Counted from the stretch's first letter, positions 16,540-60,301 are shown. The stretch is DNA of 64,000 bases from an uncultured virus (IMG/VR IMGVR_UViG_3300020050_017898) (IMGVR_UViG_3300020050_017898), one strand, 5' to 3'. Notes: a model not told the origin generated them from the sequence alone. Program-made: numbers and translations.

Positions 16540-16570
16540 ATGATTCCTTTAAAAATAAACTTCCTAAACA

Positions 16571-19134: not shown

Positions 19135-19203
19135 GGATGTCCTTGCGGGCAATAACTTAATTCAAATTAATGTTATTATATTAATAACCATATGTTTCAA
19201 AAA

Positions 19204-41793: not shown

Positions 41794-41821
41794 ATTATAA
41801 CACAGCCTATCAGTAAAGCAA
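41794..41821 (-). promoter_or_regulatory. sigma70-like promoter, leaderless GT4 mRNA
   Basis: TTGCTT, 16 nt, TATAAT, 6 nt, ATG 41787. Confidence 0.6.
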
Positions 41822-44800
41822 GTTAAAAACTTGAGTGTCGTTGACCTGAAGAGGACGATTAGAAAATCCCGCTTTTTTGAGAAAAACAGAGACTTTTACT
41901 TTGGTATTGCCAGTAACATATCCAGGATCATTATATAAGTTAGTAAAATTTAGATTTAAAATGCCATCTTCACTGATAGCTAAACCCATTCTACCATCAA
42001 CTACAATAACAGGATCTCCTAAATATGTTCCATCTAGTTCAGGAGTAAAGCTTTGAATGGCTGCAGAATATCTGATATTATCAGTATCACTTATTTTAAC
42101 ATAAGTTCCATCACTATATTTTAAAGCAGGAAATCCTTTAGCTGTTAAACCAACATTAGTTGAAACATCTTCTGCCACAAACATACTTAAAATATTTAAA
42201 GACTTTTGATATCCATCCAATCCCTCTGGAATATTTAAAATAATATCTGCTACTTCAAAATCTAGTTTATGAAAATTTTTATCTTCATCTAGAATATTTC
42301 CTTCAACAAGGAAATTCCCTGGATTATAATAATTATTTATATTCTTTTCAAAATTTAAAGGATCAGGAAAAATATTTTTATTATCAAATGTTGTATTTTC
42401 ATAATCACTATAAACCGTAATTACCGATCTAGGATCTGAAGAAACATAAACATCATCTGCGTTCCAAGTGAGCTGCTTGGTTAAGCGCATTTCTTTGGGA
42501 GTTGTATAGTCTTGAAATGCTGGTTCAGCAATGAAAGGTTTTGGTATTTCATGAATATCACCGCGGTCTATTGATCCATTATCCCAATAATCATCATGAC
42601 GATCTACAAATCTTTCTAGTACTATCTCTATTACTTGATAAGTAGTGTTCATATAAGTGTATGGATTGACAACAGGATATGGTGAAACGTAAGAAACAAA
42701 AGGAGCCTTATCTAACCAACTATTTAATAAATACCCATCATTAGTACTAATTAATTGATCACCGTCAATATCACTAGCAAAAGCTTCTAATATACCTTTG
42801 GTATTAAAGAAAGGTTTTTGAACATTAGCAGTAGTATTGCTAGTGATACTTGTAATAGCAAATTTACCTGACATTGCCACATTGTCATATCCACTTACTA
42901 CAATTAAAGATGGGTTTGTAACACCTACTGTAGCAGATTTAATATTAGTTGGACTAGTATTAACTGTATAATTTCCTGGAGTACTAGTTGGAGTAAAAGT
43001 TACAGAAAAATTACTTCCAATTTGGACCCCTTCACTGTCAACTAATTTTACTACAACACCAGAATCTACAGCATTATAATTTGCACTTAAAAAGAAATAA
43101 CTTGGACTTACTACATATCCGAAAGGAGAATATGGACTAACACTAATAACACTTGGTCCATTTTCCGGAGCAGTATTAAAATCAATATCTTTATACTTAA
43201 ACAGTACATCTAAATCACTATAATCAACTGTTGATTGTTTAATATTTCCGATTAAAATATCATGTATTTTAGCACTAACAATTCTATATGGTAAATTTGT
43301 ATCTTTATTAAAAAGTTTAGCATTCTTTGTTTCATTAGTGATAATCATAGTTCTTAGATCAAGAATAGATTGCTCAAAATCTGGATCACCAGCATCAGTA
43401 ATTACTTTAAAAAATAATTTATTATTAAAAAAATTAGGAAGATGCAAAGTAAAATCATGGAAGGCTCCATTTACAAAATACTTAACATTATTATCTTTAA
43501 TCGCACCCAAAGTTAAAACATCTGGATTATCATTATCTGCAGTATTTTTTATACTATTATACTCAGTAACGTTTAATAACTTAATAGCTGCTGAGACTTG
43601 TTTTTTGCTTAGTACATCATTACCTGTTCTTGGATTTTCTTCTAAATCAAAAGAAGTTATACCTGTCTGAGCTACAGCTTTATAAATTTGATTAGTAGTG
43701 AAGCTTAAATTATCTAAGCAATAATCTTTAGATAAACCCAAATCTTCATAATATTTTACTTTTTGTAATACTGCTCCGGCTCCAAAAAGATAATATTGAC
43801 CACTAGTCACTTTAGCATTGTCACTATATATTTGATACCAAATACTTTCAGTATAAATATTAACCCACCCTTGACCAGTAAAAATTGTTAATTGTCGATT
43901 ACCATCAGTGTTAGCGCTACTTGTAAATAGTATATCACAATTATCAACTACTCCAGCACTTAATCGCTTAAAAACCAATACATAGGCTTCGCCTTCTTTG
44001 AGAGACTTTCCATTAGATACTGATGTATTAGAAAATACTAAATCAACTGGCTGTGGAACTGTGTCTAACACATAACCGTTATTAAGCAATTGATTATAAT
44101 CAAAACTAATCTGAGCCAATGCAATAGCTGTAGGAGGATAATCTAATTTATTATCAGGAATAATATCATTAATACAATTAACTGTACTTTGTAATGGATA
44201 AATAGAAGCTATGACTTGTCCATCCCAAACCAAATTATCAGGATCGTCACTATTACGCACACTCATTAATACAGTTATTTTTTGAATGTTATTATTCTTA
44301 GCAATAAATTTTTGACCTATTTGAGTAACAATATCATTTCTTTCTAAAGCTTGAACCTCAGAAAAATCTGTGTTAATGTTTAATTGTGTTAAATCATAAT
44401 TAGTTAAAACGCTCTGTAAGTAATCGAGGAAAGGTGCCCCACTATCAATAAAAATATCTCTAAAAAATAGTGACGGATTATTATTATCGTCTATTAATAG
44501 ATCTTTATCTAATACTAAAGAAGATGCTTCTTCTACTACAATTCTGCCTCCCAAATTCATAGAGTTTGAAAATGTTTCTAATCTATCATTGAATAACAAC
44601 CCCAATAATTGGGTATAATGTTTTTTTGTAATTTGAGTTTCATTTTGAGAAAAATATAAAACATCATATTGAAGATTATAATTAAAATCTAAACCAATTA
44701 ATAATATTTTTAATTTTCTTTGTCCCACAGCCTGGCAATCAGTTACAGTTATTGATAGCTGCTGACCCTCAACAATATCTGACGTTTTTCCATTATATTC

Positions 44801-45022
44801 AAAACTTGTAGCCAAAATACCGTCTTGAAGATCATTGCTATTTGTATCAAATAATACTCTACTATCAAGTGAATCTTTGATAACACCTGATCCTATTACA
44901 TTACGTATAGTAGAAGCAACACGCGTTTCATTATGCTCTTGTTCTAGAATTAGGTCTTGATGATCAACTTGTTTTCCATCATAAAAAATGTTTTGAGGAG
45001 ATGAGACAATGGCTTTTTTCAT
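41810..45022 (-). CDS. Large virion (baseplate/tail) protein
   Basis: Last gene of baseplate operon; N-terminal FYDGKQV...EQ; EF-hand/dockerin-like DIDGDQLISTND. Confidence 0.7.
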   Translation of the reverse strand: MKKAIVSSPQNIFYDGKQVDHQDLILEQEHNETRVASTIRNVIGSGVIKDSLDSRVLFDTNSNDLQDGILATSFEYNGKTSDIVEGQQLSITVTDCQAVGQRKLKILLIGLDFNYNLQYDVLYFSQNETQITKKHYTQLLGLLFNDRLETFSNSMNLGGRIVVEEASSLVLDKDLLIDDNNNPSLFFRDIFIDSGAPFLDYLQSVLTNYDLTQLNINTDFSEVQALERNDIVTQIGQKFIAKNNNIQKITVLMSVRNSDDPDNLVWDGQVIASIYPLQSTVNCINDIIPDNKLDYPPTAIALAQISFDYNQLLNNGYVLDTVPQPVDLVFSNTSVSNGKSLKEGEAYVLVFKRLSAGVVDNCDILFTSSANTDGNRQLTIFTGQGWVNIYTESIWYQIYSDNAKVTSGQYYLFGAGAVLQKVKYYEDLGLSKDYCLDNLSFTTNQIYKAVAQTGITSFDLEENPRTGNDVLSKKQVSAAIKLLNVTEYNSIKNTADNDNPDVLTLGAIKDNNVKYFVNGAFHDFTLHLPNFFNNKLFFKVITDAGDPDFEQSILDLRTMIITNETKNAKLFNKDTNLPYRIVSAKIHDILIGNIKQSTVDYSDLDVLFKYKDIDFNTAPENGPSVISVSPYSPFGYVVSPSYFFLSANYNAVDSGVVVKLVDSEGVQIGSNFSVTFTPTSTPGNYTVNTSPTNIKSATVGVTNPSLIVVSGYDNVAMSGKFAITSITSNTTANVQKPFFNTKGILEAFASDIDGDQLISTNDGYLLNSWLDKAPFVSYVSPYPVVNPYTYMNTTYQVIEIVLERFVDRHDDYWDNGSIDRGDIHEIPKPFIAEPAFQDYTTPKEMRLTKQLTWNADDVYVSSDPRSVITVYSDYENTTFDNKNIFPDPLNFEKNINNYYNPGNFLVEGNILDEDKNFHKLDFEVADIILNIPEGLDGYQKSLNILSMFVAEDVSTNVGLTAKGFPALKYSDGTYVKISDTDNIRYSAAIQSFTPELDGTYLGDPVIVVDGRMGLAISEDGILNLNFTNLYNDPGYVTGNTKVKVSVFLKKAGFSNRPLQVNDTQVFNLLY

Positions 45023-45023
45023 G

Positions 45024-48000
45024 TTAACCTAGGTATTTAATATAAACGCGGGAGGAGGCAGGTTTTATTAGTTTTATTAGCTTTTCTAATATCAACTTAA
45101 CTCTATCATTACTCTTAACTATGTCAAAAGAATCAAAGATGTTAAGATAAAAATCATTATTTATAGAGTTTTTGCCTCGTAGATATGAAAAGTTTTCACT
45201 GATTGTCTTAATAGTGTTTCCACTTAATAAATACGTAGTATACAAATCATTTACTGATGGTACAACTGATTTTAGATTTTTAGAGAAAGACAAATCTAAT
45301 TTTTCCCCAGCAAAATAATAACCATCATTATATTTATTGGTAAATTTCAAATCATCTAATAAAAATTGCATTTTTTTAGTAAATGTATTAGTAGACCCAA
45401 AAACTAATATATTTATTTGATCTGTAAAATTCAAAGTAGTACTTATATTGTTATAGTTAACAACATTCCCGAAGCTAGAAGGCATATAACCATCATAAGG
45501 TGATTGATTAAAAGTAGTATCATACTCAAATGTATTACTTTGTTGATAACCATCTAACCACATAGAGATAGTATCATTAACAGAATTTTTCATTGAATAA
45601 CTTAATTTAACTTTATGCCAGCTACCACTATTCCATACAGCAGGTACAGTTATGCTAGCAGATTTATTAGAAGCTGTAACCTCATAAACTAGATCACCTT
45701 TTTTGGTTTTGTAGAAACTCATACGATCACCATTAAATTTTAATGGCAAATAAGTAACTTTTACATTCATCACATCACTAGGCAATGATTTTCCAAGTTT
45801 AACTATTTGTTTATCTGGTGATACATTAGCATTTAATGGTTTATATATTACTATATAGTCTTCTGTTTCTGCTGGAATAGTACCCAAATAAATTGTAACA
45901 CGATCTTGTGCAATATATCCCCCATCAAAATAATCAAAATTACTAATAGAATTTTTTCTTTTAATACTAATAATTTGCTGAACAGGAGCACTAGCAACAA
46001 AATTATATTGAGAAGCATTCAGTTCTATTATTTCTGTAATAGCATCATCTATGGTGGTTGTAATTTCTCCATTAAGAAAATAATCTTCATTAGAAGATAA
46101 TGTTTCAATTTTTAATATTTTACTAGCTTTATTCTTTAATTGTATGGTATTTCTATCAGAAGATAGAATTTCTTCAACTATAGCTCCATAAAAATCAAAA
46201 TAATATCCATCACGGTTATCATGATAAGTATCATTAATTGGTGACATCCAAAAAGATATTGTTCCTTCTTTGGTATTAAAAATACCTTCATTAGAAATTT
46301 CTATTGGTTTTACTACATGAATACTATCACCAAAATTTGAATTTATTTTATGGTTTGTATAAAATAATTTTTTGTTTTTATTTCTGTCATAAAAATCACT
46401 AATATTATTTAACCCTTGTAATAATAGTAATGTAGACGAATCTTGTTTTAATGCTTTTAATGAATTAAAGTCTGCTGTGATAGACTTATTATTCATAGGC
46501 TCTCCAATTCTAGTATCTTCTAAAAGAATATTATTTATTTTGATTTGATCTAATACTCCTTTTATTGGATTAGATAAATTAAAACTATTACCAACAATAA
46601 AATTATCATTTGATTCATAATCTAAATTTAGTCTAGAATGATAATCAAATTTATAAAACCCTTCTGTTAAATAATATGATTTGCCTGGTGCAAATGCTTG
46701 TTGAAATGTGAAATATCCATTTTGAAAACCAGTTCTATCTTCAGTAGCCCGTAGAATCTGATATTTACCATTACTAAAAATTTGATTTATTACTGGTGAA
46801 GTAAAAATCGTATGATTATCAAGTACATCTGTGATTTTATAAATTCCTCCCTGACCAGGAGGCTCAACTATATAAATATAATTGTTTTTATCACTGTAAG
46901 AGAAAAATACATTTTGGTCAGTTAAAGCATAACCATCTGATTGTAAATCAAATCCATCTTTGATAACATAGCTATATTTTAATTCAGGATATAAGTCTCC
47001 ATCTTCGGGAACAGTAATCCAATAAGTTTCACTTACTTCAACATTTGCCCATGGTTTATTACTTGCTTGAATGTATCCATCTACTTCTATAGAAGTAATT
47101 TCTATAAATTTATCGACAAAACTTATTGAACCTATATTTGTAAAATTATGGCTAATATTAATAGCATAACCATCTACATCATACCCATCTACAGAAATAG
47201 TTGTGGGTCCAGAGCCAAAGTCTAAATTACTATTGCCACTTAATGTTAGGGTTAGACTTCTACCAGAAACTGATGGACTAGTAAAATAATTTTCATTATT
47301 AGTTTCCCAATGGAATTCTCCGCCTATCTCACTAGCATTATTAGTACTAGCTGAAATACCAATTTCTTTAATAATTTTCTTGACTCTAACAGAGTCTAAA
47401 TCAATTGGTGATGGCATTCTAGTGCGAATAATATTTTCTGAATCATTACTCCAAATATAATATTTACCTATATTTCTTTCAGTGTTCATTCCTAATGTTC
47501 CAACCATAACAATGTCATTGGTTGAAATATTATTAGTAATAATTATTTGATAACCATCTGTTTGATAATCTGGATTAATAGCTTTTCTTCCATTTAATTC
47601 AATTAAATCTTTAGAATAAATGTAAAATGGTACGTTGTTAACTGGATCTATAATTGGAGAAATTGTAGCAATATTTGGAATAACTGAAGTTATTGCTACT
47701 AATTGATTATCAATAAAAAGATAATCGCCAGAACTAATAGATGATAAATCATTACTTGGACTAACAAAATAGCCATCATTATTAATTGATCCAAAATTAA
47801 ATAACTTTGTCTCTCCTTTAAGTACTGCTAAATCGGGATAAACCCAGTCTTTTGTTCCTAAAGTTAGTGTAGCTTTGTTTACACTAAATCTAGCATTAGT
47901 AAATGATAAGTTAATTGGTGTCGTTAAAATTAAACTCTGACCATTTACACTAGAAATAGAATATCCTCCAGGAGATAATCCATTTTCATTAATATAAATG

Positions 48001-51000
48001 ATATCTCCTGATTGAATATTATAATTGCCGAAATTTATACTAGAAATAACTGTATTACTTCCAGCAACAGTAATCAAGTCATTGCTACCTACAATATCAC
48101 GATCAAATGTTCCAATAAATCTATCAAGATGCAATGATCTAAAAACATTTTGTTCAATAGTATTGTAACTTTCATTCCAATAATTTTGTCCTAATACTTC
48201 TTGACCATCAACAAATAAATGTAATTCATCACTATTATTTACAGTGTTAAGTTTCCAGCCAGCACCAATGTGATGTAGTTCATCAGCTTTCCAATCAGCA
48301 CAGTAATGAGAAATATTAGCTGCTTTACCTTTTTTATCATATACTTTGAAATTTAAAAATCCAAAACTATCAAAAAATAAACTCATTCTATTTTTGAATC
48401 CTGTATTTGAATCAAAAATGTATTTTTCATCATTAGCAACAAAATCTATTTGTCGATTTGGTCCACCATTACTATAGGTATATTTAAATCCTTTAGTGTT
48501 GGTTCGCATAGTTTCATTAGCATAACTAGCTTTAGTTACAGCATGAATTTTATACTCAGAAGATACTTCAATAGTTAATTGATCTCCTGGACCTATGCCA
48601 TTACCTTCGGTAGCAACAATTGACCATTTATTTATATCCAAATCTTTTGTCATATAAATAAAATAACCTATTTTATTAAAAGCTGGTTCACCAAAAATAA
48701 TACTATCCTTAGTAATAGTAAAATCTGAAAGCTCAGGGTTATACTCTTGTGCTCCTAAATAAATTAATTTATTATCAATTAAAGAACCATTTTTCTTAAT
48801 GATAATATGTAACTCAGCATTATTATCAAATATATTTTCTAAATTTTTTAACCAACAAGAAAATGTACCTTCTTCTAAATTAATATAAGAAGAAAAGGGC
48901 AATTTTATATGATCCGTATTAATAAATTTTGGGGCGAGATTATATTTGACTTTTTCTAGACCTGAATGATTAATATAAATATTACTATCATGCAAAAATG
49001 AATCGCCCAAAATCCATTGCTCAAATAAAGTTTCTTTTATTTCTGGATTTATATGAGTAATAGCATTTACCAAATTAGTAATAGCTTGTTTAGTACTTCC
49101 TAATAAGAAAGATGATAATCCGCCAAAAATAGCATCTCGGAATCTTTCTCGATCATAATCAGTGTCAAAAGATTGTAATTCTGGTACTTTTAACAAAGTA
49201 GCGAAATTGCTTAAACCTTCTCTTAAAGCTCCGGCTTTATAAGAAACATAATAAGTTGTTTCTGGCTCAACTGAACTTTCTCTAAAATCTAATACATTAT
49301 CTCCATATTCATAAGAAACAATGATTTCATCAACTAAATATTCATAATCTACAAATAAATCACCTATATTAAAATCAATAGCAAATCTAGTCAAATTATT
49401 AGCAGTTATAGTAAAATCTAAAGAAATTAATTCATTTACTGACCCAGTAGAAAGATATACTCTATATTGATCATTTACAATATCAAATGATGAATATACT
49501 TCTGTTAAAGTATTTTTTTGTTTACATGAAATAGTATAAGTAAAATCAGAATTAATGTAATCTGATTTTATTTGAGTATCAATATAATATTGATATCCAT
49601 CATATTGAGTTACAAAATCATCAGCAATTTTCCAATCATTAATTTTTACTTCTTGATCAGTAATTGTATAAGGAAAATTGATTGGAAAACTATTATTAAC
49701 TATATCTTGATAATTAAAAATTCCATTTATAGTAGCATTAGAAAAAATTTTAGTATCAACATCTACTGTCAATTTTCCATTAATATTAAATATAATAAAA
49801 TTATTAATTTCTAAAGTTAATTGTTGATTTAATTCTTTTAATTCTATTTGATTATCTAGAATAGTACCAAAATCAAATTTTTCAAGATTAATATTTTCGA
49901 TGTTTTGTTTTCTATTTATACCAAATACATTTGTAATATGTTTATTAGTTGTTTGAATATAAGAATAACGATAGTCTATATTGCCAATGTTATAATTTTG
50001 AACATTATCAACTGCTACGTAAACAATACCATTATTGTAATCAATACAATATTCACCCACATTTAGCGATAAACTTGTGTTAATATCAACAAAAAATCTT
50101 TCTTTTTTAAAAATATTTGTATTAGAAAAACTTACAGAAGTATTGACAGAATATCCAATACCATTTTGGGTTTGACTTACTATGTTTACATTTGATAAAA
50201 ATATTTTAAAAGTTGTATTGGTATAATTTAAACTATCACTTACAATTAATACTTCATTAATAGAAGTAAAATCAACTCTTTCATTTTTAACTGTACTAAC
50301 ATTAGGCGAATTAGTTCCATTTACATAAATTTTATTACCAGCAAATCTACTAGCTTCATATATTTCACCGGATGTTTCATTATAAATTCTAAAAACTCCT
50401 GTAATAGGCGTATTTTTAGCAAAAAACACGTTTGGATATTTATATCTATTTTCTACTCTTTCATTTAATGATTCTAAATGTAAATTGCTTTTATAATCAA
50501 TATTTTGCACTAAAGTATTTTCATAATTATATGAAATATAAGCTTGGTTATTTAATAGGTTACCTTTTGGTAATGCAACTAAATCATTTAAACTAGCAGT
50601 GTCTGTGGCTTGATCATCAAAAACATAATCAATTTCAGGAGTAAACACATTCTTATGATAATATGAAATAGTTGGTGGAATATCTCCTGTACCATCATTG
50701 CTGCTTGCCCCGTAGACATAAATTTTACCATTATTATAATCTACACAATATTGACCAACTTTAGTTGGAAGATTAGCTAGATCAAATTGTATTTCTTCTA
50801 GAAAAGCTGGATGACTAGAAGTAAAATCTATATTGTTAGTAATAGTTAATCCACCAATAATGATTGAATTTCCATTAATATCAGTAATAGGATTAAATCT
50901 TGTATCAAACACATTTATTATAGCAGGAATTTCTTCTCTAATAGATTCTACTATTGAATATACTTGCAATGTATTTAAATCAATAATTTTACCTAAATTA

Positions 51001-51989
51001 TTAACAAAATATTCTATTTCTACTCTAAATATATTATTTAAATCAAAAGCCGGATCTAATAGTACATTATCACTTAATTTAAACTGTGAATCAGATAAAG
51101 TCAGATTAGTAAAACTATTATCATCATATTTACTTTCCAATAATTGATATCCTAATTTATTAAAATCATAATCAAAATTAGGAACATCATTGATAAAAGT
51201 AAAAGATAATTTTGAAATCTTAATAAGATTTCTATCTAAATTAAAAACTAAATTATTTTTATCAAAAACTGTAAAAAAAGAGCTATCTTGTACACTAACT
51301 ATGAGTGACTTAGAGATTTGACCCAATGATAAAACACTATCTTTGAATTCTTCAATTAGAATTTTTTCAAATTTACTTGTATTAGTAGGAGTTAGTCCGA
51401 CTCTAGTAACTAAGTAAGCCCCTTCATTATCTAACCGGTCAAATCCAGATAATCCACGGGTTTTTTCTTCATCAACTGTATCATAAGATAAAAATCTATC
51501 ACTTTTTATCTGATTAGTTTCTTGAACTAATTTTACTAATTCTTGAGAAGAACCTTTTAGATATTTACCAATAAAAGTATCATTATTGTTAATATCATAA
51601 ATATTATCTTTAAAATAAGATTTATAATAATCAAATACTTTATTATCAATATCCGTCGGACCAAATATTCTTAATAAATTATTAATATTATCTTCTAATA
51701 AAATATATTGATTATCTCTACTAAGGAATCTATTATCAACTGTAGATTTAATTATTAGTTTATAAACACTATTATATGTTAGTGGACTAACATTTAGTAT
51801 AACACATTTAGATTTATCTGGGTCAGATAACCTTACTTCTACTAAAGTGATAACTGGATCTGGCGTTCCTATTGTTTCTGAAGTAAGTAAGAAATTAGCA
51901 GCAGTAATGTTTTGAGTTACTTTTTCATTGAAGTAAACTTCTATAGTATTTGTAGTAACTTTGCTATCTACTATTCTTAAATTTTTCAT
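45024..51989 (-). CDS. Giant baseplate wedge-like protein with LamG-like domains (2321 aa)
   Basis: Follows baseplate J; two EGTxSxW...H.....(W/Y)...L.(V/L)DG LamG-like units; ends LIKPASSRVYIKY. Confidence 0.75.
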   Translation of the reverse strand: MKNLRIVDSKVTTNTIEVYFNEKVTQNITAANFLLTSETIGTPDPVITLVEVRLSDPDKSKCVILNVSPLTYNSVYKLIIKSTVDNRFLSRDNQYILLEDNINNLLRIFGPTDIDNKVFDYYKSYFKDNIYDINNNDTFIGKYLKGSSQELVKLVQETNQIKSDRFLSYDTVDEEKTRGLSGFDRLDNEGAYLVTRVGLTPTNTSKFEKILIEEFKDSVLSLGQISKSLIVSVQDSSFFTVFDKNNLVFNLDRNLIKISKLSFTFINDVPNFDYDFNKLGYQLLESKYDDNSFTNLTLSDSQFKLSDNVLLDPAFDLNNIFRVEIEYFVNNLGKIIDLNTLQVYSIVESIREEIPAIINVFDTRFNPITDINGNSIIIGGLTITNNIDFTSSHPAFLEEIQFDLANLPTKVGQYCVDYNNGKIYVYGASSNDGTGDIPPTISYYHKNVFTPEIDYVFDDQATDTASLNDLVALPKGNLLNNQAYISYNYENTLVQNIDYKSNLHLESLNERVENRYKYPNVFFAKNTPITGVFRIYNETSGEIYEASRFAGNKIYVNGTNSPNVSTVKNERVDFTSINEVLIVSDSLNYTNTTFKIFLSNVNIVSQTQNGIGYSVNTSVSFSNTNIFKKERFFVDINTSLSLNVGEYCIDYNNGIVYVAVDNVQNYNIGNIDYRYSYIQTTNKHITNVFGINRKQNIENINLEKFDFGTILDNQIELKELNQQLTLEINNFIIFNINGKLTVDVDTKIFSNATINGIFNYQDIVNNSFPINFPYTITDQEVKINDWKIADDFVTQYDGYQYYIDTQIKSDYINSDFTYTISCKQKNTLTEVYSSFDIVNDQYRVYLSTGSVNELISLDFTITANNLTRFAIDFNIGDLFVDYEYLVDEIIVSYEYGDNVLDFRESSVEPETTYYVSYKAGALREGLSNFATLLKVPELQSFDTDYDRERFRDAIFGGLSSFLLGSTKQAITNLVNAITHINPEIKETLFEQWILGDSFLHDSNIYINHSGLEKVKYNLAPKFINTDHIKLPFSSYINLEEGTFSCWLKNLENIFDNNAELHIIIKKNGSLIDNKLIYLGAQEYNPELSDFTITKDSIIFGEPAFNKIGYFIYMTKDLDINKWSIVATEGNGIGPGDQLTIEVSSEYKIHAVTKASYANETMRTNTKGFKYTYSNGGPNRQIDFVANDEKYIFDSNTGFKNRMSLFFDSFGFLNFKVYDKKGKAANISHYCADWKADELHHIGAGWKLNTVNNSDELHLFVDGQEVLGQNYWNESYNTIEQNVFRSLHLDRFIGTFDRDIVGSNDLITVAGSNTVISSINFGNYNIQSGDIIYINENGLSPGGYSISSVNGQSLILTTPINLSFTNARFSVNKATLTLGTKDWVYPDLAVLKGETKLFNFGSINNDGYFVSPSNDLSSISSGDYLFIDNQLVAITSVIPNIATISPIIDPVNNVPFYIYSKDLIELNGRKAINPDYQTDGYQIIITNNISTNDIVMVGTLGMNTERNIGKYYIWSNDSENIIRTRMPSPIDLDSVRVKKIIKEIGISASTNNASEIGGEFHWETNNENYFTSPSVSGRSLTLTLSGNSNLDFGSGPTTISVDGYDVDGYAINISHNFTNIGSISFVDKFIEITSIEVDGYIQASNKPWANVEVSETYWITVPEDGDLYPELKYSYVIKDGFDLQSDGYALTDQNVFFSYSDKNNYIYIVEPPGQGGIYKITDVLDNHTIFTSPVINQIFSNGKYQILRATEDRTGFQNGYFTFQQAFAPGKSYYLTEGFYKFDYHSRLNLDYESNDNFIVGNSFNLSNPIKGVLDQIKINNILLEDTRIGEPMNNKSITADFNSLKALKQDSSTLLLLQGLNNISDFYDRNKNKKLFYTNHKINSNFGDSIHVVKPIEISNEGIFNTKEGTISFWMSPINDTYHDNRDGYYFDFYGAIVEEILSSDRNTIQLKNKASKILKIETLSSNEDYFLNGEITTTIDDAITEIIELNASQYNFVASAPVQQIISIKRKNSISNFDYFDGGYIAQDRVTIYLGTIPAETEDYIVIYKPLNANVSPDKQIVKLGKSLPSDVMNVKVTYLPLKFNGDRMSFYKTKKGDLVYEVTASNKSASITVPAVWNSGSWHKVKLSYSMKNSVNDTISMWLDGYQQSNTFEYDTTFNQSPYDGYMPSSFGNVVNYNNISTTLNFTDQINILVFGSTNTFTKKMQFLLDDLKFTNKYNDGYYFAGEKLDLSFSKNLKSVVPSVNDLYTTYLLSGNTIKTISENFSYLRGKNSINNDFYLNIFDSFDIVKSNDRVKLILEKLIKLIKPASSRVYIKYLG

Positions 51990-51991
51990 AT

Positions 51992-54900
51992 TTACCTAGA
52001 TTCTACATTGATTATCACATTATTAGCTATGAAGTATTCATCTTTTTGAGCAGTAATTGATAACACCTGACCTGTTTCATCATTTTTATTAAAACCAATT
52101 ACTCTTACCCGATCTATACCATCAATAGAGTAAGCTACACTCACTAAATCACTACTATCTATGGTGCCGCCAAGCGTTTCACTATTGAGGTTATTTATTA
52201 AAGCATCTCTTAAATTTTGAACAACTGTATTAACACTACCTTGAAAACCATTTACTAAAACAATATTCATTGTAACATTAATACCAATTTGTTTGGCTTC
52301 TTTAGCTAAAACATCTGCATTGATTGGTCTGATATTTTCAATAGCTTTAGTTACATCGTTAACTAATTTATTATAATTATATCTAATTACAATTCTTTCA
52401 TTGGTTTTTGGAGCAATATAATCATAGTATGCTCTGTATCTAGAATTTAATCCTGGTTGGTTTAAATTAGTTACCGATATTCTGCTGTTTACTGTACTTT
52501 TAAAACCACTAATAGTTTTAATATTTTTTATTACCATAAAGTTTTTATTAGTATAAAGTATCCCCGGTCGAACAAATGATAATATTTCACTATCATTTAC
52601 TTTCATTAAATAAACGATAATTTTTAATCTGTCACCAATTTGTGGGATAAAAACATTAGAACCATCATTCAATGTGTTGGTGATAGTATCATTTAGATTA
52701 AATTCTATATCTGATAAAGTCAAATTTTTGTTTAGTTGGCTATAAATATTATTTTTAATTTCACAAAAATTAAGATCATATACATTATTTATACTTAAAA
52801 TTTGCTCGCTAGTAGCCGCAATAGTATTTACTTTTGCTAGATATTTAATATCAATAATTTGATAACCAGTTAAATTTTTAGCTCTTAATATTTCATTAAT
52901 ATTTTGTTTTAAGCCAGTATTAGTAGCCGTAAATACTCCCTCTAATTTTAGAACAGAGTCTCCATTTATTTGTATTACACCATTATTAATATTTTGGTCT
53001 ATTAAATTAATACCTAATTTTGTTGATGTGGCTCGCATTTTATTATTTCTAAATAAAGTTAGGATAACCTTATCACCACTATTTACAGTATTTTTATCAA
53101 AATATATTCTCCCTATACTCGCATCGTATTCAATTGTATTTGACAAGTCTTTATTACTAATCAATCTGGTTAATAATATATTTTGTTCAGTCAAATCATC
53201 ATGAATAAATAGATTTAAGCTAGTAATATAAATAGAAGCATTATATTCACCTTTAAATGTTCCTTTAGTAACTTTTATCTTTTTATTTTTTATCATTTCA
53301 TTGGTGAAAGGGGTAGATAAACTAAATAATGTTCCACTACCATCAGTATAACCATCTGTGTAAGAACTATAGATTTCCCCAGTAAATCCATCAACAATAC
53401 TAAAGTAAATTCCTGATTCATTTAAGGAAATAGTAGTGTTACTTATGTCTATATAATTCCTATCAGTACTTACATCATAAAGCCAACTTTTAACATTACA
53501 ATAAATTACTCTATTACTGAACATCGCTGGTTGAAATAAATTTTTATATTTTTGATTATATAACACCACCACATTATCTTGATTATTAGCCCCTACAGTG
53601 TTATCTATCATTACTCTATATTTACCATCATTTACTACAACTGTACAACCAGTTACATAAGAAGCATTAGTACTAATATTAAAAATATCAACTATATCAT
53701 ATCCATCTACAATTGAAATATCTGAAAAACATTCAAGATCAATGTAATATTGAAGAGAAATATTCTGTTGAACTTTAGCACTTTCTCTTGTTATCACACA
53801 ATTGTTTAAATTGTTAATCGGTATATTTGGATTATTATTAAACCCATTGCCTACTCTAAATGTAGGTAGATTAGAAACATCATTAGATACTAATTCATTT
53901 ATTTTAGCAATATAAACGACTTCTAATCTTAGTTCTGATAAAGCAGAAATTTCTGGATTGGAAGGTATAGTAATAATATTATTGTTAAATGTACTATTTT
54001 CTAATAAAGATAATTTATTATATTTTACATAGGCTCTATCTCCCGCCTGACCATTTGTATCTGTAGGTAAAAATACATAGGCTGAATTATCTAGATTATT
54101 AATAAAAAATCCATCATTGAGGGTAGTATTATAAACCTCTGTATTGCCATACACACTATTAACATCAGTAATTAATGAAATTAAAGATAGATAACAATAT
54201 TTTCTATTGAATAGTGTACCGCTAAAATCTTGTTCGATTTCAGAAATAGCTAGCAAATATTTATTAATAGAAATTAAACTAGAAACATTGTTGCTAGCAA
54301 TGGCTGTATAAAAATTACCAGAAACATCTTTAACGAATCGTATTTCTTCAGTAGTTAACGCGGAATATCCCCAATCAATACTATCATTTACTGATCTTTT
54401 ATTGTTGGTATTAACTTTGCCATCAAAGTCATAATAATTATCATAATCTATTATCCAATTATAATCTACTTGGAGAGTGTCTGTAGCCCTTGGTAGGGTC
54501 TTTCCACTGATTTGAACCCTACCAGTTGAATTACTAGTTCCACCATCAGGGTTTTGATTTACGATCAAATACCGCTCACCTGTATTAGTATTAAATACTC
54601 TAGATACACTTGTGGCTGGTGTATGAAGCAATTGAATAAATCTATTATCAGATAATATGGTACTATTTTCATTTGTGACAGCTAAATTTTGTGTAATCTT
54701 ATTAAATTTAATAACATCAGTAAAATTTACTTTATCTTGACCAAATGGCTGCCCTTTTAGTTTATCTTCAGAAAAGTTATTAATGTAATTGCTAATCCAA
54801 TGAAATTTATCAGTAGCAAATGGTGATCCTGCAAAATTGCCAGAATCTTTTATTATTTCATAATTACCAGATATTCTCCCAAATTCATCAATAGATTTGG

Positions 54901-55960
54901 GTAGAAAATTAGAACCTGATTGTGATCCGGTAATTTCTATTACATCATTAACTGGTTGTAGTGGAAATAATCCTAACTGATTACTTTGAAATCTTTTACG
55001 ATTAATGGTAGTACCATTAATTTCAGGTATCTGACCAAGAATTACATCATTTAAGGCGCTACTAGCATTAGTAGTATTACTTTTATCTTTATAAATAAAA
55101 GATTCTGTATTTTCTTGAGGATTTTTTCCTAAGACTAATACATCTACTTTTCCACCGGTACCTTCACTAATTATTTCTCTGGTACCATCATCATGTATTT
55201 CCACTACAGTACCATCTCTAGTCATTAAAGGATCACCTGGTTCAATTACCAAAGCATCACTAACTCCTAATACACTAGTAGCAGCTGAACTATAGCCAAG
55301 ATTAGTTCCTGTTGAGGCGCCATTCAAACTAGAAATAAATCTATTTTTTAGAACAGAATCTGTTTCGGAATCTCTTCCATTTTCAAACGGAAGAATATTT
55401 GTAGCATTATTAACATTAGAAATATTGGAACGATTTATTCCGTATTTAGAAATATTTCCAATAGTACCAGGAGAGGTACTCTGTACTGATACCTCAACTG
55501 CATAAATATCAGTGATACCCAAAAAATCTAAATCATTTTTATATTTTAATGCTACACTTTTATAAAAATTACCATTTTTAACACTAACAGTAGTGCCATT
55601 TAATACAGAAAATGATAAACCATTAGAAGAATAAAGTAATTGCCCCGGATTAATAGCAAAATCTGCAAAAATATTACTAAAAGTAACTAATGCTACCCCT
55701 GTTGATGAAACTGAATTTTTTCTACTGATACCAAAATTTTTAACATAGTTATCAATATCAATACCATTCAAATCTTTGAATGACAGTTGACTACTAACTA
55801 AACCCAATTGATCATAATATGCAGATAATTGAGTAGCGGGAGCATCAATTAAAATATCTCTAATAACAGTGGCTGGCTTAGTATCAGCATCAGGTTGAGC
55901 CAATTTAATAAAGTCAATAAAATCTTGAATAATAGTTTGTAGATTTTTTGTTCTAGCCAT
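51992..55960 (-). CDS. Baseplate J-like (gp6-type) protein
   Basis: PGTIGN...GRDSETDSVLKNR...GT..GY...VLGVSDA, GGKVDV; C-terminal IDGIDRV. Confidence 0.88.
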   Translation of the reverse strand: MARTKNLQTIIQDFIDFIKLAQPDADTKPATVIRDILIDAPATQLSAYYDQLGLVSSQLSFKDLNGIDIDNYVKNFGISRKNSVSSTGVALVTFSNIFADFAINPGQLLYSSNGLSFSVLNGTTVSVKNGNFYKSVALKYKNDLDFLGITDIYAVEVSVQSTSPGTIGNISKYGINRSNISNVNNATNILPFENGRDSETDSVLKNRFISSLNGASTGTNLGYSSAATSVLGVSDALVIEPGDPLMTRDGTVVEIHDDGTREIISEGTGGKVDVLVLGKNPQENTESFIYKDKSNTTNASSALNDVILGQIPEINGTTINRKRFQSNQLGLFPLQPVNDVIEITGSQSGSNFLPKSIDEFGRISGNYEIIKDSGNFAGSPFATDKFHWISNYINNFSEDKLKGQPFGQDKVNFTDVIKFNKITQNLAVTNENSTILSDNRFIQLLHTPATSVSRVFNTNTGERYLIVNQNPDGGTSNSTGRVQISGKTLPRATDTLQVDYNWIIDYDNYYDFDGKVNTNNKRSVNDSIDWGYSALTTEEIRFVKDVSGNFYTAIASNNVSSLISINKYLLAISEIEQDFSGTLFNRKYCYLSLISLITDVNSVYGNTEVYNTTLNDGFFINNLDNSAYVFLPTDTNGQAGDRAYVKYNKLSLLENSTFNNNIITIPSNPEISALSELRLEVVYIAKINELVSNDVSNLPTFRVGNGFNNNPNIPINNLNNCVITRESAKVQQNISLQYYIDLECFSDISIVDGYDIVDIFNISTNASYVTGCTVVVNDGKYRVMIDNTVGANNQDNVVVLYNQKYKNLFQPAMFSNRVIYCNVKSWLYDVSTDRNYIDISNTTISLNESGIYFSIVDGFTGEIYSSYTDGYTDGSGTLFSLSTPFTNEMIKNKKIKVTKGTFKGEYNASIYITSLNLFIHDDLTEQNILLTRLISNKDLSNTIEYDASIGRIYFDKNTVNSGDKVILTLFRNNKMRATSTKLGINLIDQNINNGVIQINGDSVLKLEGVFTATNTGLKQNINEILRAKNLTGYQIIDIKYLAKVNTIAATSEQILSINNVYDLNFCEIKNNIYSQLNKNLTLSDIEFNLNDTITNTLNDGSNVFIPQIGDRLKIIVYLMKVNDSEILSFVRPGILYTNKNFMVIKNIKTISGFKSTVNSRISVTNLNQPGLNSRYRAYYDYIAPKTNERIVIRYNYNKLVNDVTKAIENIRPINADVLAKEAKQIGINVTMNIVLVNGFQGSVNTVVQNLRDALINNLNSETLGGTIDSSDLVSVAYSIDGIDRVRVIGFNKNDETGQVLSITAQKDEYFIANNVIINVESR

Positions 55961-55968
55961 CTTAACCT

Positions 55969-56406
55969 TTAGGGAGACAATTCAAATTCAGTATATAAAG
56001 TTTTTAAACTTTTGGTAAGTGTTTTTATTTTAACAATTATCATAGTTGGATCATTGGGGTTTTGATCTACAGAAATACCAACTATTGCCGCCAATTGTTC
56101 ATTTAAAGACATGTTTTGACCAGTCCTTAATTGAGCTTCCTGTAAACTTTTTAAGTTTTCTAAAGCTTTTATTAACTGCATCTTGCCTAAATTATTAATA
56201 ATATCTTGATCTATAATAGAACCAATAAGACTTTTGCTAAAATACGAACCATACCAAGGTTGAAGTGGATTACTACCAACATCTACATAGCATATTTTAA
56301 GAATATCTTGAATTAATTTATCTTGACTTTCAACTTTAACTACATCTCCATTTTTTATGGAGAAATCACCATCAATTAATTTGATATCAAAAGACATTCT
56401 CACCAC
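55969..56406 (-). CDS. gp25-like baseplate protein / sheath initiator
   Basis: Q.ILK....GSNPLQPWYGS motif, directly upstream of J. Confidence 0.8.
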   Translation of the reverse strand: MVRMSFDIKLIDGDFSIKNGDVVKVESQDKLIQDILKICYVDVGSNPLQPWYGSYFSKSLIGSIIDQDIINNLGKMQLIKALENLKSLQEAQLRTGQNMSLNEQLAAIVGISVDQNPNDPTMIIVKIKTLTKSLKTLYTEFELSP

Positions 56407-56417
56407 TCATTCTAAAT

Positions 56418-58085
56418 TTATCCTGTATTAATTTGCACATCTTTCCATAATGAATCTACTATATCATATAAATTCTTGATGGTGTTAGCAAAGCTATCAT
56501 AAGCCTCACCTATATCTAATCTTGTGCCTAACTCTTTAAAAGATAAAACTGACATTCTTTCAATAGCTAAATCATCTATTAGTCCAATTAATGCTGACTT
56601 ATCTACTAAGTAAAGACTGTAATAAACTACTAAAATATCTATTAATCCTAGTCCAGAAAATTCTCCCATAATGATTTCAATAGTAGATAAAGCCTTGTTA
56701 GCTTTTTCACATTCACTATTTCTTATTGAAACAGCCTGATCTAGTGATGTTTTAACAATACTTTTTAAGCTTTCTTTATTTTCTGGGCTAGCCACAGAAT
56801 CAAATGATGAAAAGGCAAAAATTCCTTGATTAACATTAATTGTTTCATTAGGTAACCTAGAAATACTTTGGGAAAGAACATATTTACTAAACATTTCTGC
56901 AATAGCAGTATCTGCGGGCGTATTTAAATTATCTGTGTCTAACACATTTATTTCATTAGTTTTAGATCCAAATTCGGGTCCCCTTTTGTCTGGCGTAGGT
57001 ATCCAATGATATGTGTCTCTTGTTTCTTTAACAATATTTTTAGCTTGAGAAAGCTTTTTAAGTATTGATTTAGTTGTAGATAAGAATTCAATTAATTTTG
57101 ATTGATCATCTATATTATAAACTTTTCCCGTATAAATCTTTTCTAATATTTCATTTTCCTGAATGTTTTCAAATTGTTTAAAAAATGAAACAGTTACATC
57201 TAATGGTTTAGATGCAGTAAATGCTTGCTTTTGATTTTCTTGTTGATAAAACCTATCTCTGATCACTTTCTCTATTAAAGGACGTTTAAGAAAAACATCT
57301 TCTGTAATTTGAGTTTTTGTTTTATTTTCAACAAAAGGCACACAAATTTTTCTAGAACTAGGCTGTGTGGTTTGATCAATTCTGGGATCAACCAAAAATG
57401 GCTGCATTAAATGATATCTTTTATTTAAATTATTAGTATCTTTAGTATTAGCAGTAATAGCTATTCCATCTGAGTCTGTACCAAAACTATAATCTAACAG
57501 ATATGTACCATTAGGATCTTGTTCAATTGGATCACGATAAAAATTTTCGGTATAACCTTGCGACTCAATTAAATTATAATTTTCTGGATTTAACTCATTT
57601 CTTACACAAGAAGAAAATTGCCTGATATTATAAGATGATAAAGCGATAACACTTGAAGTAATATCTTGTCTGGCAAAGATAGGGGCAATTGTCTGAGAAT
57701 AATAATTTTCTCTGAAAGAAGAAACTTTATAAAATAAAGGGTCCATTTGTTTTAATAAATTAATTCTTTTTTCTACTTCATCTTTATTGCCATTTAAATC
57801 TTTAAAAAACCCTGGACTATAAAAATCAAAACTAGATGATAACACGGGTAATCCAACTAGTCTATAAAAAGCATGACAACGACTTTCTGAACTAGTATTA
57901 CTAACATTCAGTTCAGTTTTATTGGCTCCAAAATTAGATATTTTAATCTTAGAAAAATTTAAACTAAGAATAGATGAGATTGGTGTGAGACTTCTAATCT
58001 CATCTATTTCTCTAATAAAATCATTATAGAGTTTATCTATATCAATTTCATATTCTTCATTACCAGCATCAATTACATTACTCAT
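56418..58085 (-). CDS. Hypothetical virion protein
   Basis: 555 aa inside baseplate operon. Confidence 0.7.
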   Translation of the reverse strand: MSNVIDAGNEEYEIDIDKLYNDFIREIDEIRSLTPISSILSLNFSKIKISNFGANKTELNVSNTSSESRCHAFYRLVGLPVLSSSFDFYSPGFFKDLNGNKDEVEKRINLLKQMDPLFYKVSSFRENYYSQTIAPIFARQDITSSVIALSSYNIRQFSSCVRNELNPENYNLIESQGYTENFYRDPIEQDPNGTYLLDYSFGTDSDGIAITANTKDTNNLNKRYHLMQPFLVDPRIDQTTQPSSRKICVPFVENKTKTQITEDVFLKRPLIEKVIRDRFYQQENQKQAFTASKPLDVTVSFFKQFENIQENEILEKIYTGKVYNIDDQSKLIEFLSTTKSILKKLSQAKNIVKETRDTYHWIPTPDKRGPEFGSKTNEINVLDTDNLNTPADTAIAEMFSKYVLSQSISRLPNETINVNQGIFAFSSFDSVASPENKESLKSIVKTSLDQAVSIRNSECEKANKALSTIEIIMGEFSGLGLIDILVVYYSLYLVDKSALIGLIDDLAIERMSVLSFKELGTRLDIGEAYDSFANTIKNLYDIVDSLWKDVQINTG

Positions 58086-60301
58086 ACTTGACTAACATCC
58101 TGATCATCACGACGTACTTCACTGTTATTTCCAAGATTCGCTTTGGTCTTAATAAAGGTATAAGGTAATTTCTTAATTGAACTAGATGGAAGAACATCAG
58201 GATCATCAGGAATAACAAAATCAATAAAATAAGTATTATCAAATCTCATTGAGATGTATCCATCACCATCATTATCAGATGATATGTAACCAACAAAACT
58301 TTGGCTACCATCAAAAGTAAAACTTGTTACATCTCCCAAAGAAGCATCAGCTGATAATCTCAAAGCAATATCATTGGCTGTTGTAGCATCTAATCCATTA
58401 AGAATATTTACATTATTACTATCTTTTAATACCACAGAAACTTTGATGGTATCAGTAGTAAATTGAATTTCAGGATCCAGAGTAAAATCGCTATTATTAG
58501 GATCAAAGGCAATTCCAACCAATTCATTAATAGAATTACCAACTGATCCGATCATATTATTTAGATAGGCGCTGGTATTGTTATCAAAATCAGTTAAAGT
58601 ATCATCATTAAAATTATCTCTAAGATTAGCAATACTAACTTGGAAGAAGTTTAGCGCGTCTGCCATATCAGGAAATCTATTCTGGTCTTCTGGCAAAGCC
58701 GTACCATCAAATCCAACAAATCCATCACTGTTTCCTGGGTTAGCTGTTGTACCATTAGCAGTATTAGCTAATAAATCATTTACTAAAGCTAGTTTAGGTC
58801 CAATGTTATCAAACAAGTTACTGAAAAGAATAGTGCGTTCAGCATCAAATTCTCTATCACAATTTAGAATAACAACATTTTGTTCAGTTAGTACGTCTTC
58901 ATTGATCTTAAAAGTGTAAGTAACATTGCTATGAATAACTGGTGCGTAATCAATGATACTTAAATCTGCTGGGGCAGGAAGCGTAACTGTTGATTTAAAC
59001 AATAATGTTTCTAACGTTGCTTGCGAACTAGTTTTTACTATCCCCGTCGAATCATATCCAGTAATAGGTGTTACTCCATTACTTTCATAAGCTAAACCAC
59101 CAGCAATACTAATTACACCATTAGGAATAACACTGGTTGAACCATTCTGATTTATTAAACTGGGGGTGGGAGTTTGAGTTACTATACAGTTTTTGATTTT
59201 AATTGTTCTAGCATAACCATCAACTGCAGGAAAAATTCTATTATAATCGCTGGGATCATAAAATAATTCAATATCAACTAAATAAGGAACTTGTCTGGTG
59301 TCTGAAGTAGCTGAATAAACTTTATCAGTTGGAAAGAATACTGGCTTGGGTGATTCAGTAACATCAAAAGCATCATAAATATTACTGAACTTCTCTTCTT
59401 GAGCCTGGCTAGCATCTAGGAATGAATAACTGCTAAAACGTTGCGTTTGATCAAATACTCCAGTAAAAGGTGGAGCCGCTTCTACTTTTACTGTAGAGAT
59501 ATACTGTAATGTTCCTGTGACTCGTGTGTAATCACCATTAAGAATAAAAGCCGGACATACATCAGTGGTACAGCAATCTGAAGCGTCTGAACTATTACCT
59601 GATTTACATGGGGGAATTTTAAAAGAAAGATTAAGAATTTCTTTGATAGCAGAAAAAATAAAATTGAAGATAGCGAAGATAATTAGTAATTGCTGAAACA
59701 AACAAAGCAATGAACTAATTTTATTGATAGCGCCTTTAATTGATTGAGCATTGCCATCAGCAAATGCTTTCTTTAACATTTGAATGTTTTTTCTTAAAGC
59801 ATCAATTAAATTTTTGATCTTTTGAATAATATAATTAATGATCTGAAGAAGCAAGTACAGTAACGACATAATCATTGCTATTAAAGCAAAGATAGGAAAC
59901 ATTCGAAGAAAGTCTGGAAGACAGTTTCTAAAAAGTTTTTTTACAGCTTTCCTCATTTTAAACGGGCGAGGAAAAGCGCATAATACTTCTATGATACAAA
60001 CTATTAAATTTAACATTGGAAGAAAGAATTTGTATAATAACAGGAATGGAAAGAATTTATTTAATAAATTAAGAATACCATCAAATATATCTTTTTGAAA
60101 TTTAATATTAAGATTAGGTTTAAGAATTCCTGATGGAAGTAGCAAAGAAATTTTATCAAAAATTTCTAAAATATCTTCAGGAAAACCTTCTGGAAATAAA
60201 TTAGTAGGAAGATCAATAGCTAATGGTTTTCCAAATCCAGGAATACCAAAACTCGGTCCGGTTGGTACTGTAACATTAAGATCTTGAGGATTACAAACCA
60301 T
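58082..60301 (-). CDS. Virion protein with hydrophobic N-terminal helices
   Basis: 739 aa; several long apolar helices then beta-rich region. Confidence 0.7.
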   Translation of the reverse strand: MVCNPQDLNVTVPTGPSFGIPGFGKPLAIDLPTNLFPEGFPEDILEIFDKISLLLPSGILKPNLNIKFQKDIFDGILNLLNKFFPFLLLYKFFLPMLNLIVCIIEVLCAFPRPFKMRKAVKKLFRNCLPDFLRMFPIFALIAMIMSLLYLLLQIINYIIQKIKNLIDALRKNIQMLKKAFADGNAQSIKGAINKISSLLCLFQQLLIIFAIFNFIFSAIKEILNLSFKIPPCKSGNSSDASDCCTTDVCPAFILNGDYTRVTGTLQYISTVKVEAAPPFTGVFDQTQRFSSYSFLDASQAQEEKFSNIYDAFDVTESPKPVFFPTDKVYSATSDTRQVPYLVDIELFYDPSDYNRIFPAVDGYARTIKIKNCIVTQTPTPSLINQNGSTSVIPNGVISIAGGLAYESNGVTPITGYDSTGIVKTSSQATLETLLFKSTVTLPAPADLSIIDYAPVIHSNVTYTFKINEDVLTEQNVVILNCDREFDAERTILFSNLFDNIGPKLALVNDLLANTANGTTANPGNSDGFVGFDGTALPEDQNRFPDMADALNFFQVSIANLRDNFNDDTLTDFDNNTSAYLNNMIGSVGNSINELVGIAFDPNNSDFTLDPEIQFTTDTIKVSVVLKDSNNVNILNGLDATTANDIALRLSADASLGDVTSFTFDGSQSFVGYISSDNDGDGYISMRFDNTYFIDFVIPDDPDVLPSSSIKKLPYTFIKTKANLGNNSEVRRDDQDVSQV

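Follow-up and report, generated by a model that had tools for sequence, protein, structure and literature searches.

The enrichment statistics presented here require selection for an exposed Asp-Gly-Tyr (DGY) unit on the outward-facing tail proteins of a huge, uncultured phage and of related phages. The phage is represented by a 64,000-nucleotide (nt) stretch of DNA (IMG/VR IMGVR_UViG_3300020050_017898; hereafter the window, by which we mean the whole of this stretch), in which baseplate genes bearing the tripeptide are followed by genes for predicted glycosyltransferases (GTs). Because selection acts on the intact tripeptide and on the presence of several copies, not on fixed positions, we propose that something reads DGY. 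Tentatively, and as a reading that could well be wrong, we interpret DGY as a surface tyrosine tag recognized by a phage-encoded modifying factor, the most likely form of such recognition being tyrosine O-glycosylation by the adjacent GT4-family enzyme and its partners; a glycosylation sequon is, in this sense, a candidate and not a finding.

Across the window's 56 open reading frames (ORFs), each of at least 100 amino acids (aa), DGY occurs 21 times. An earlier note on this DNA, which first pointed to the motif, had located each copy by the low plus-strand base of the minus-strand 9-nt codon triplet (e.g., 45318-45326), and all 21 coordinates as well as the counts per ORF proved correct. The 2321-aa protein carries 11 copies against 0.57 expected from composition, in agreement with the earlier estimate of less than one; the respective values are 2 against 0.27 in the 1070-aa protein, 2 against 0.25 in baseplate J, 2 against 0.09 in the 739-aa protein and 2 against 0.03 in the 147-aa ORF (Table 1), and a 322-aa fibre ORF and a 115-aa ORF contain a single DGY each. 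No tripeptide of the 2321-aa protein is as enriched as DGY (Poisson probability 3e-11, with 9e-5 for the second-best), and its count was matched in 0/20000 shuffles; even a first-order Markov expectation derived from the DG and GY dipeptides, those of the motif itself included, reaches only 2.1. When the 739-aa, J and 1070-aa proteins are pooled, 6 copies are seen against 0.6 expected, a count that 1/20000 shuffles match, and the two copies of the 147-aa ORF are attained in 6/20000. The single copy in the fibre block is not significant (6201/20000 shuffles), five more baseplate-side ORFs (1912 residues) have no DGY, and the absence of the motif from the recognizable enzymes, also noted earlier, holds for the enzymes of the window. 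The excess is found in the outer baseplate proteins but not in the inner ones or in the enzymes. The fibre-like ORFs at 13874-19152 show no DGY excess, unlike the proteins of the baseplate rim.

Table 1. DGY-bearing proteins, glycosyltransferase genes and inner baseplate genes of the window
Feature	Coordinates	Strand	Matches and DGY sites
147-aa ORF	819..1262	-	DGY residues 46 (1119-1127), 68 (1053-1061)
267-aa protein, possible third glycosyltransferase	37336..38139	-	PF13712 E 0.0023, weak, under gathering score
GT2-family (GT-A) glycosyltransferase, 234 aa	39968..40672	-	PF00535 E 1.2e-21
GT4-family (GT-B) glycosyltransferase	40663..41787	-	PF00534 E 1.4e-10; phrog_2170 E 2e-27
1070-aa baseplate/fibre protein (P1070)	41810..45022	-	DGY residues 762 (42731-42739), 936 (42209-42217)
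2321-aa outer baseplate protein (BIG)	45024..51989	-	11 DGY, 0.57 expected; residues 797, 1405, 1478, 1601, 1606, 1637, 1685, 1927, 2146, 2166, 2222; low coordinates of the 9-nt sites, same order: 49593, 47769, 47550, 47181, 47166, 47073, 46929, 46203, 45546, 45486, 45318
Baseplate J/gp6-like wedge protein, 1322 aa, long C-terminal extension	51992..55960	-	PF04865 E 8e-20 (residues 76-268); phrog_6; DGY residues 752 (53699-53707), 869 (53348-53356)
Inner baseplate genes without DGY (gp25-like 145-aa and 555-aa; internal control)	55969..58085	-	phrog_2669
739-aa baseplate-module protein	58082..60301	-	DGY residues 361 (59213-59221), 680 (58256-58264)

Codon usage and the tolerance for related tripeptides indicate that selection on DGY is at the protein level, with the tripeptide as the unit. 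In agreement with the earlier description, the window's 21 motifs employ all four Gly codons (GGT 9, GGA 8, GGC 2, GGG 2) and both codons for Asp (GAT 20, GAC 1) and Tyr (TAT 19, TAC 2). A BLASTP comparison of the four DGY proteins at E<=0.05 detected no repeats, either within or between them, and the only close pair in the 2321-aa protein of the window comprises residues 1601 and 1606, a 5-residue spacing. In 930 DGY motifs from 224 genes, codons are used at the background frequencies of those genes, and each of the 16 possible nine-mers is represented; the conclusion of the earlier note that the motif belongs to the protein level and is neither a DNA repeat nor a repeated domain is thus borne out. 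A protein search with the 2321-aa sequence yielded 130 homologues, the best 120 of which were analyzed. In this set, the ratio of observed to expected counts is 14.7 for DGY, as opposed to 1.1 for DGF, 0.9 for NGY, 0.1 for EGY, 0.8 for DGW and 0.7-2.0 for the five permutations. Moreover, Tyr follows DG in 874 of 1988 cases (44%) and NG in 78 of 1729 (4.5%), and the alignment columns that contain DG fall into two classes, those in which the next residue is never Tyr (V, I, L, T or F instead) and those in which every DG is part of DGY (108/108, 89/89 and 35/35).

The enrichment extends across the clade. The homologues of the 2321-aa protein are ~2380 aa long, mostly 32-38% identical, and in many cases contain the PF13385 (Laminin_G_3) domain; they carry 1-16 DGY each, with a mean of 7.3 against 0.5 expected (n=120). 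In IMG/VR, an alignment-based scan confirmed 98 relatives, of which the best 80 loci were kept; gene order is preserved across these loci, and the family-wise counts that follow were made without deduplication of ORFs. Observed against expected numbers of DGY are 485/40.1 in the 2321-aa family, 431/17.0 in the 1070-aa family (77 ORFs), 100/12.9 in the baseplate J family and 15/0.4 in the 739-aa family (12 ORFs, most of them partial), so that orthologues of the 1070-aa, J and 739-aa proteins are enriched 8-35 times. No excess was found in the inner baseplate families, namely, the 555-aa (0/2.9, 70 orthologues) and gp25-like (0/0.5, 72 orthologues) proteins, or in the enzyme families (GT4 0/3.7, GT2 1/1.6, the weak GT2-like protein 0/2.2, Fpg 0/1.4), and the 325-aa family contains 0 DGY against 2.2 expected. 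DGY is confined to outer virion proteins. The family of the 147-aa ORF is small (5 homologues found), and 3/5 of these homologues have an inserted loop, LDGYNTDGYFSHDGYTYPTDGYVF, that holds 4 DGY; this ORF probably encodes a small virion protein. The variable loop of this family consists almost wholly of DGY units in relatives and makes a compact candidate test substrate.

The positions of the motif turn over rapidly. In a fast MAFFT alignment of the 120 homologues, on which all column counts for this family rest, the 874 DGY are spread over 123 columns, of which 111 contain the motif in no more than 12 sequences and 65 in a single sequence; the count of such rare columns is 7-20 for the permutations, DGF and NGY, against 111 for DGY. 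The motif often arrives as an insertion, in some cases as tandem DGYx units, although a 4-residue tandem spacing does not hold as a general pattern (87/874 in the 2321-aa family and 8/365 in the 1070-aa family). At two columns that are very rich in DGY in the family, the window protein has EGN and NGS instead. Of its own 11 sites, 4 lie at columns with DGY in at least 11/120 homologues and the other 7 are private or rare (no more than 7/120); 8/11 are common to a 76%-identical relative, the proportion of conserved triplets overall being ~48%. Similarly, the 1070-aa family has 41 DGY columns, none of them universal: residue 762 of the window protein falls in a column with DGY in 35/63 sequences, and residue 936 is private. 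Residue 869 of baseplate J belongs to a column with DGY in 37/66 sequences. These patterns indicate that DGY has been gained repeatedly and that the copy number is kept while the positions are not fixed.

Losses are evident as well. The lineage of loci L055 and L061 has 4 DGY in three proteins (2 in the 2321-aa protein, 0 in the 1070-aa protein and 2 in J) against 0.75 expected, and no replacement tripeptide takes the place of DGY there. Another locus, L065, has 5 DGY, and two with the same gene order (L081 and L085, the contigs of which stop at or just past the 1070-aa gene) have 2 each against ~0.9 expected; a metagenome scan for longer sequence yielded the identical truncated end. In a midpoint-rooted FastTree phylogeny of the 120 homologues, DGY-poor sequences are nested among rich ones at no fewer than 3 places, a distribution that therefore reads as secondary loss. 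The motif is dispensable for the fold. DGY is thus order-specific, exposed, and gained and lost as a unit, as a sequon is.

Structure prediction locates the motif mostly on turns, the setting that the earlier note had proposed to check. An AlphaFold2 model of residues 1380-2321 of the 2321-aa protein (predicted local distance difference test score, pLDDT, 79.7) is a string of beta domains that covers 10 DGY. In 8/10, Asp and/or Gly lies at a strand boundary or in a loop, with Tyr usually opening the next strand (one of these 8 is in a stretch with pLDDT <50), and the remaining 2/10 lie inside strands assigned by DSSP. We judged exposure by a substitution proxy at the Tyr position of the DGY columns. 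In relatives that lack DGY at 26 such columns, the Tyr position is polar in 65%, a gap in 22% and Phe in 3%; in comparison, the 234 other Tyr columns of the same alignment have Phe in 30% and hydrophobic residues in 54%. Furthermore, a 1070-aa orthologue carries the tandem DGYDDGYSDGYSDGYG within a loop of pLDDT <50. Given the polar substitutions and this low-pLDDT loop, the DGY tyrosines are predicted to lie at the surface and not to be interchangeable with Phe. A Foldseek comparison of the C-terminal model with the PDB gave only weak matches of jelly-roll, LamG, CBM32 and C1q type (1 at E<=0.001), and the most conserved DGY site (116/120) is part of a LamG-like '...LFLDGY...' strand.

Calcium loops account for a minor part of the motifs. 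Three 1070-aa orthologues (L053, L067 and L072) contain a Dockerin_1 domain (E 5e-9 to 1e-6, above the cut-off), modelled with pLDDT >90, in which DGY occupies both Ca loops and occurs twice more nearby; an example is L053:12379-15321, residues 589-657. Such a domain in a phage baseplate suggests that the 1070-aa protein undergoes cohesin-type docking. The window copy of this protein has no Pfam match and retains a loop-like 'DIDGDQLISTND'. As a general explanation, we rejected the Ca2+ loop because few DGY have the acidic pattern of such loops: the [DN]x[DN]xDG context surrounds only 2/874 DGY in the 2321-aa family and 23/365 in the 1070-aa family, and loops with these acidic or amide ligands, two and four positions before Asp, are found only inside the Dockerin_1 domains of the 1070-aa orthologues.

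With respect to the possible reader, the gene neighborhood offers candidates. On the minus strand, the order of genes is 661-aa, 104-aa, 739-aa, 555-aa, gp25-like (145 aa), baseplate J/gp6-like (1322 aa), 2321-aa, 1070-aa, GT4 (374 aa), GT2 (234 aa), Fpg-like glycosylase, 325-aa and the 267-aa weak GT2-like gene. Spacing from the baseplate genes through GT4 is 1-22 nt; as the earlier note had stated, the two GT genes directly follow the operon, GT4 starting on the same strand 22 nt past the end of the 1070-aa gene and overlapping GT2 by 10 nt. A scan of 36-46 kb detected no terminator-like site between the 1070-aa gene and GT4, and its count of promoter-like sites was not above that of shuffles. 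In the 33 non-redundant loci that have complete genes and 6 kb or more of downstream sequence, GT4 lies next to the baseplate operon in 32, whereas GT2 is present in 29 and the weak GT2-like (GT2_5-like) gene in 24. In the lone non-adjacent case (L072, with 24 DGY in three proteins), GT4 and four GT2 matches are found on the same contig, ~75 kb away; on this contig (G001), the GT block has moved and expanded (~97.8-103.7 kb), and the DGY load is among the highest. In 31 GT4 orthologues, E256 is invariant and E264, eight residues on, is at least 90% conserved; we take this Glu pair to be the EX7E signature of retaining GT4 enzymes. GT2 has only generic GT2 relatives, and the L055 orthologue of the 267-aa protein matches PF00535 (E 1.2e-10). 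Glycosylation of DNA as an alternative role for the GTs was considered and rejected: the window encodes a canonical ThyA as its thymidylate synthase (233 bits, cut-off 108 bits), beside a dihydrofolate reductase (DHFR) gene, and signs of hydroxymethyl-pyrimidine DNA are accordingly absent from the window.

We envisage that the tight Asp-Gly turn would present the hydroxyl of a solvent-exposed Tyr on the outward-facing 739-aa, 2321-aa and 1070-aa proteins and the extension of J, and also on the small 147-aa protein. The most likely reader would be a phage-encoded factor, the best single candidate being the conserved GT4, together with GT2 and the GT2-like gene; GT4 could then O-glycosylate Tyr in the cytoplasm, before or during tail assembly. 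The data establish the enrichment, its specificity, the turnover of positions, the substitution proxy for exposure and the conserved gene neighborhood; the existence of a reader, its nature as a glycosyltransferase and the role of Tyr as acceptor are what we infer. In its most specific form, which is conceivable but which we rather doubt, this proposal makes DGY the sequon of a new cytoplasmic tyrosine O-glycosylation in huge phages, whereby GT4, extended by GT2-type enzymes, would coat dozens of baseplate-rim tyrosines with glycan, the sites moving while their number is kept.

Several observations weigh against assigning the motif to the GTs. The whole case rests on sequence statistics, and the GTs themselves match generic GT families only. 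In the DGY-poor L055/L061 lineage, GT4, GT2 and the third, GT-like gene all remain open and are 54-65% identical to those of relatives (~51% for the structural proteins of this lineage), with the invariant GT4 glutamate retained; the three genes persist in L065 as well. No association is seen between DGY load and the presence of either GT2 or the GT2_5-like gene (Mann-Whitney p 0.37 and 0.57, respectively; 33 loci), and the richest locus, L010 with 26 DGY, lacks both genes within the locus. Within a single phage, the DGY counts of its different proteins show a weak correlation or none (rho 0.25, 0.11 and -0.12). GT4 is present in 33/33 informative loci and thus shows no presence/absence variation; its co-occurrence with DGY is therefore confounded with clade membership and cannot discriminate, and gene order, even where conserved, is by itself a weak argument for a functional link. 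A predicted complex of GT4 with residues 1594-1699 of the 2321-aa protein (score 0.00, run without controls) speaks neither for nor against such a link. The proposal of the earlier note, that DGY is a sequon or docking motif for decoration of the virion, hence stands in part: the protein-level nature of the motif, its restriction to outer virion proteins, the exposed turns and the conserved GT neighbors favor it, whereas the retention of GTs in a DGY-poor lineage and the missing association with GT2 do not.

It may also be, although we hold this to be doubtful, that DGY is not read within the phage at all and that Tyr, pushed out by the Asp-Gly turn, makes together with Asp a small patch that sticks to host-surface glycans or some other ligand, providing multivalent weak adsorption. 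Such a role is consistent with the exposed turns and flexible loops that the motif occupies in the outermost baseplate proteins, which hold lectin-type modules (Laminin_G_3 in the homologues and the weak CBM32 and LamG fold matches), and with a copy number that is kept as positions change; independent losses in at least 3 lineages would fit changed host surfaces, and the retention of GT genes in DGY-poor lineages is compatible with it. Stickiness, however, does not explain the strict order of the motif, given that the permutations, DGW and DGF are all near expectation and that Trp and Phe also stack on sugars. Moreover, the recurrence of the same tripeptide across a clade with only about 30-37% identity and, presumably, many hosts suggests a constraint intrinsic to the phage and not a host-specific ligand.

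A phage-encoded reader other than the neighboring GTs, located elsewhere in the genome, seems to us unlikely; it could be a further enzyme that modifies tyrosine or a partner that binds the motif in docking or assembly. All the evidence for a unit-like, position-independent and exposed motif applies to it equally, the persistence of GT genes in DGY-poor lineages favors it, and the 147-aa protein is also tagged at a distance of ~40 kb from the GT genes; however, Pfam scans of the window's 56 ORFs gave no candidate. Distinctly unlikely, in our assessment, is the possibility that DGY is a favored staple of beta-hairpins, comparable to the Asp-box, or part of a Ca2+-binding DxDxDG element, with no external function. 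Most sites do have a strand-turn-strand setting, the best conserved one lies in a LamG-like strand, and DGY fills both Dockerin_1 Ca loops in the 1070-aa orthologues. Yet, apart from the rarity of the Ca-loop context, NGY, an equally good turn, is not enriched, and beta-rich proteins such as the 555-aa protein and those of the fibre block do without the motif. An Asp-box-like staple has a fixed position in the fold and an aromatic residue that can be swapped for hydrophobic ones; here, positions turn over (123 columns, 65 of them with a single sequence), relatives have a polar residue or a deletion in place of Tyr and hardly ever Phe, and whole lineages with the same proteins dispense with DGY. 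That the excess arises by chance, from composition or from a DNA-level repeat, an idea for which only the single, non-significant copies in the 322-aa and 115-aa ORFs speak, is already refuted by the shuffles, the Markov expectation and the family-wide excess, on the one hand, and by the background codon use, the full set of nine-mers and the lack of BLASTP repeats, on the other.

As for the phages themselves, the window has a G+C content of ~30%, and the contigs that bear relatives of its proteins reach 430-498 kb. The clade is a large group of uncultured phages with genomes of ~200-490 kb, the genome of the window phage being roughly 400 kb. A search of 50,697 phage records with the 2321-aa protein (tblastn) and with 22 kb of DNA (megablast) gave no match, and therefore no cultured relative is at hand; scans of viral contigs with one protein alone retrieved nothing or just the contig of the query. 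The capsid and tail-tube genes lie outside the window. Beyond the 267-aa gene are replication genes, a ribonucleotide reductase and a TubZ/PhuZ-type tubulin (30345-31712; PF00091 E 1.5e-10, with a TubZ-like C-terminal domain) that is syntenic in 14 related loci. The large subunit of the ribonucleotide reductase (24897-27545) and a PIN-PhoH protein (20722-23310) look intein-bearing, with matches to intein-splicing and LAGLIDADG domains in the former and to Hint and LAGLIDADG homing-endonuclease domains in the latter, and there is a free-standing LAGLIDADG ORF at 2087-3022. A Gly-rich 644-aa fibre-like protein (14605-16539) contains DUF5907 repeats (E 1.6e-12). A papain-family C1 peptidase (4580-5338) and an M23 peptidase (9001-9579) are encoded amid genes of nucleotide metabolism (dUTPase, IMPDH/GMP-reductase-like, ThyA and DHFR).

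When bacterial genomes and viral contigs were scanned with a DNA pattern encoding DGYxDGYxDGY, at least 121 and at least 119 stretches matched, respectively. Of 80 loci taken from each set, nearly all of the bacterial matches consist of low-complexity GDGYGDGY or DDGYDDGY tracts, as do most of the 18 viral ORFs examined, and no functional lead emerged. Such (G/D)DGY tracts, for instance GDGYGDGYGDGYG, occur in many bacterial phyla (L095-L174) and in small ORFs of ordinary-sized phage contigs (L216-L233), and Bdellovibrio-like and Myxococcota metagenome-assembled genomes encode proteins with 10-15 DGY.

If something does read DGY, the motif would represent a virion-wide tagging system of a large clade that is recognizable from sequence alone. 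If, furthermore, the tyrosines carry a sugar, phage virion glycosylation would extend beyond mycobacteriophages, a tyrosine sequon would join the short list of glycosylation motifs, and a three-residue tag of possible use in protein engineering would be at hand. Irrespective of mechanism, DGY marks the outward-facing proteins of unannotated tails and thereby points to the 147-aa ORF as probably encoding a virion protein.

Literature searches retrieved no published account of a DGY motif in phages or baseplates, nothing on Asp-Gly-Tyr in phages among the matches listed, and, judged by title or abstract, no tyrosine O-glycosylation of phage proteins. Comparison with known systems is nevertheless instructive. 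Asp-boxes (SxDxGxTW) and the DxDxDG loops of EF-hand or dockerin type resemble DGY as an Asp-Gly turn that recurs in unrelated folds, and some DGY do lie in dockerin Ca loops; unlike these elements, most DGY have no acidic ligands, and the motif is dispensable, lineage-specific and demands Tyr over Phe. Three-residue sequons that move while their number is kept are familiar from N-x-S/T on viral envelope proteins, and Bacteroidota use the sequon D-(S/T)-(A/I/L/V/M/T). DGY is similarly short, order-specific and exposed, with high positional turnover, but it consists of other residues, the acceptor would be Tyr, and its enzyme is only putative.

On bacterial S-layer proteins (Paenibacillus alvei and others), the hydroxyl of Tyr is a glycan acceptor, as we propose for these phage surface proteins. 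The S-layer pathway employs a lipid-linked glycan that is transferred outside the cytoplasm by an oligosaccharyltransferase, whereas phage tails assemble in the cytoplasm, and Pfam scans of the window's 56 ORFs detected no oligosaccharyltransferase domain.

The 'moraphages', large phages of one aquatic lineage, have four core GT orthogroups, and the excerpt of the report on them mentions neither DGY nor tyrosine (PMC12619734). According to the same excerpt, mycobacteriophage virions are glycosylated by phage-encoded glycosyltransferases (Freeman et al. 2023, cited in PMC12619734), with the glycans on the C-termini of capsid and tail-tube subunits (PMC12619734). As far as this excerpt allows comparison, the candidate sites described here differ from those C-terminal glycans, being internal, dispersed DGY turns of baseplate proteins; in both cases, however, phage GT genes lie within or next to virion structural genes, and exposed virion proteins are the targets, proposed in the present case.

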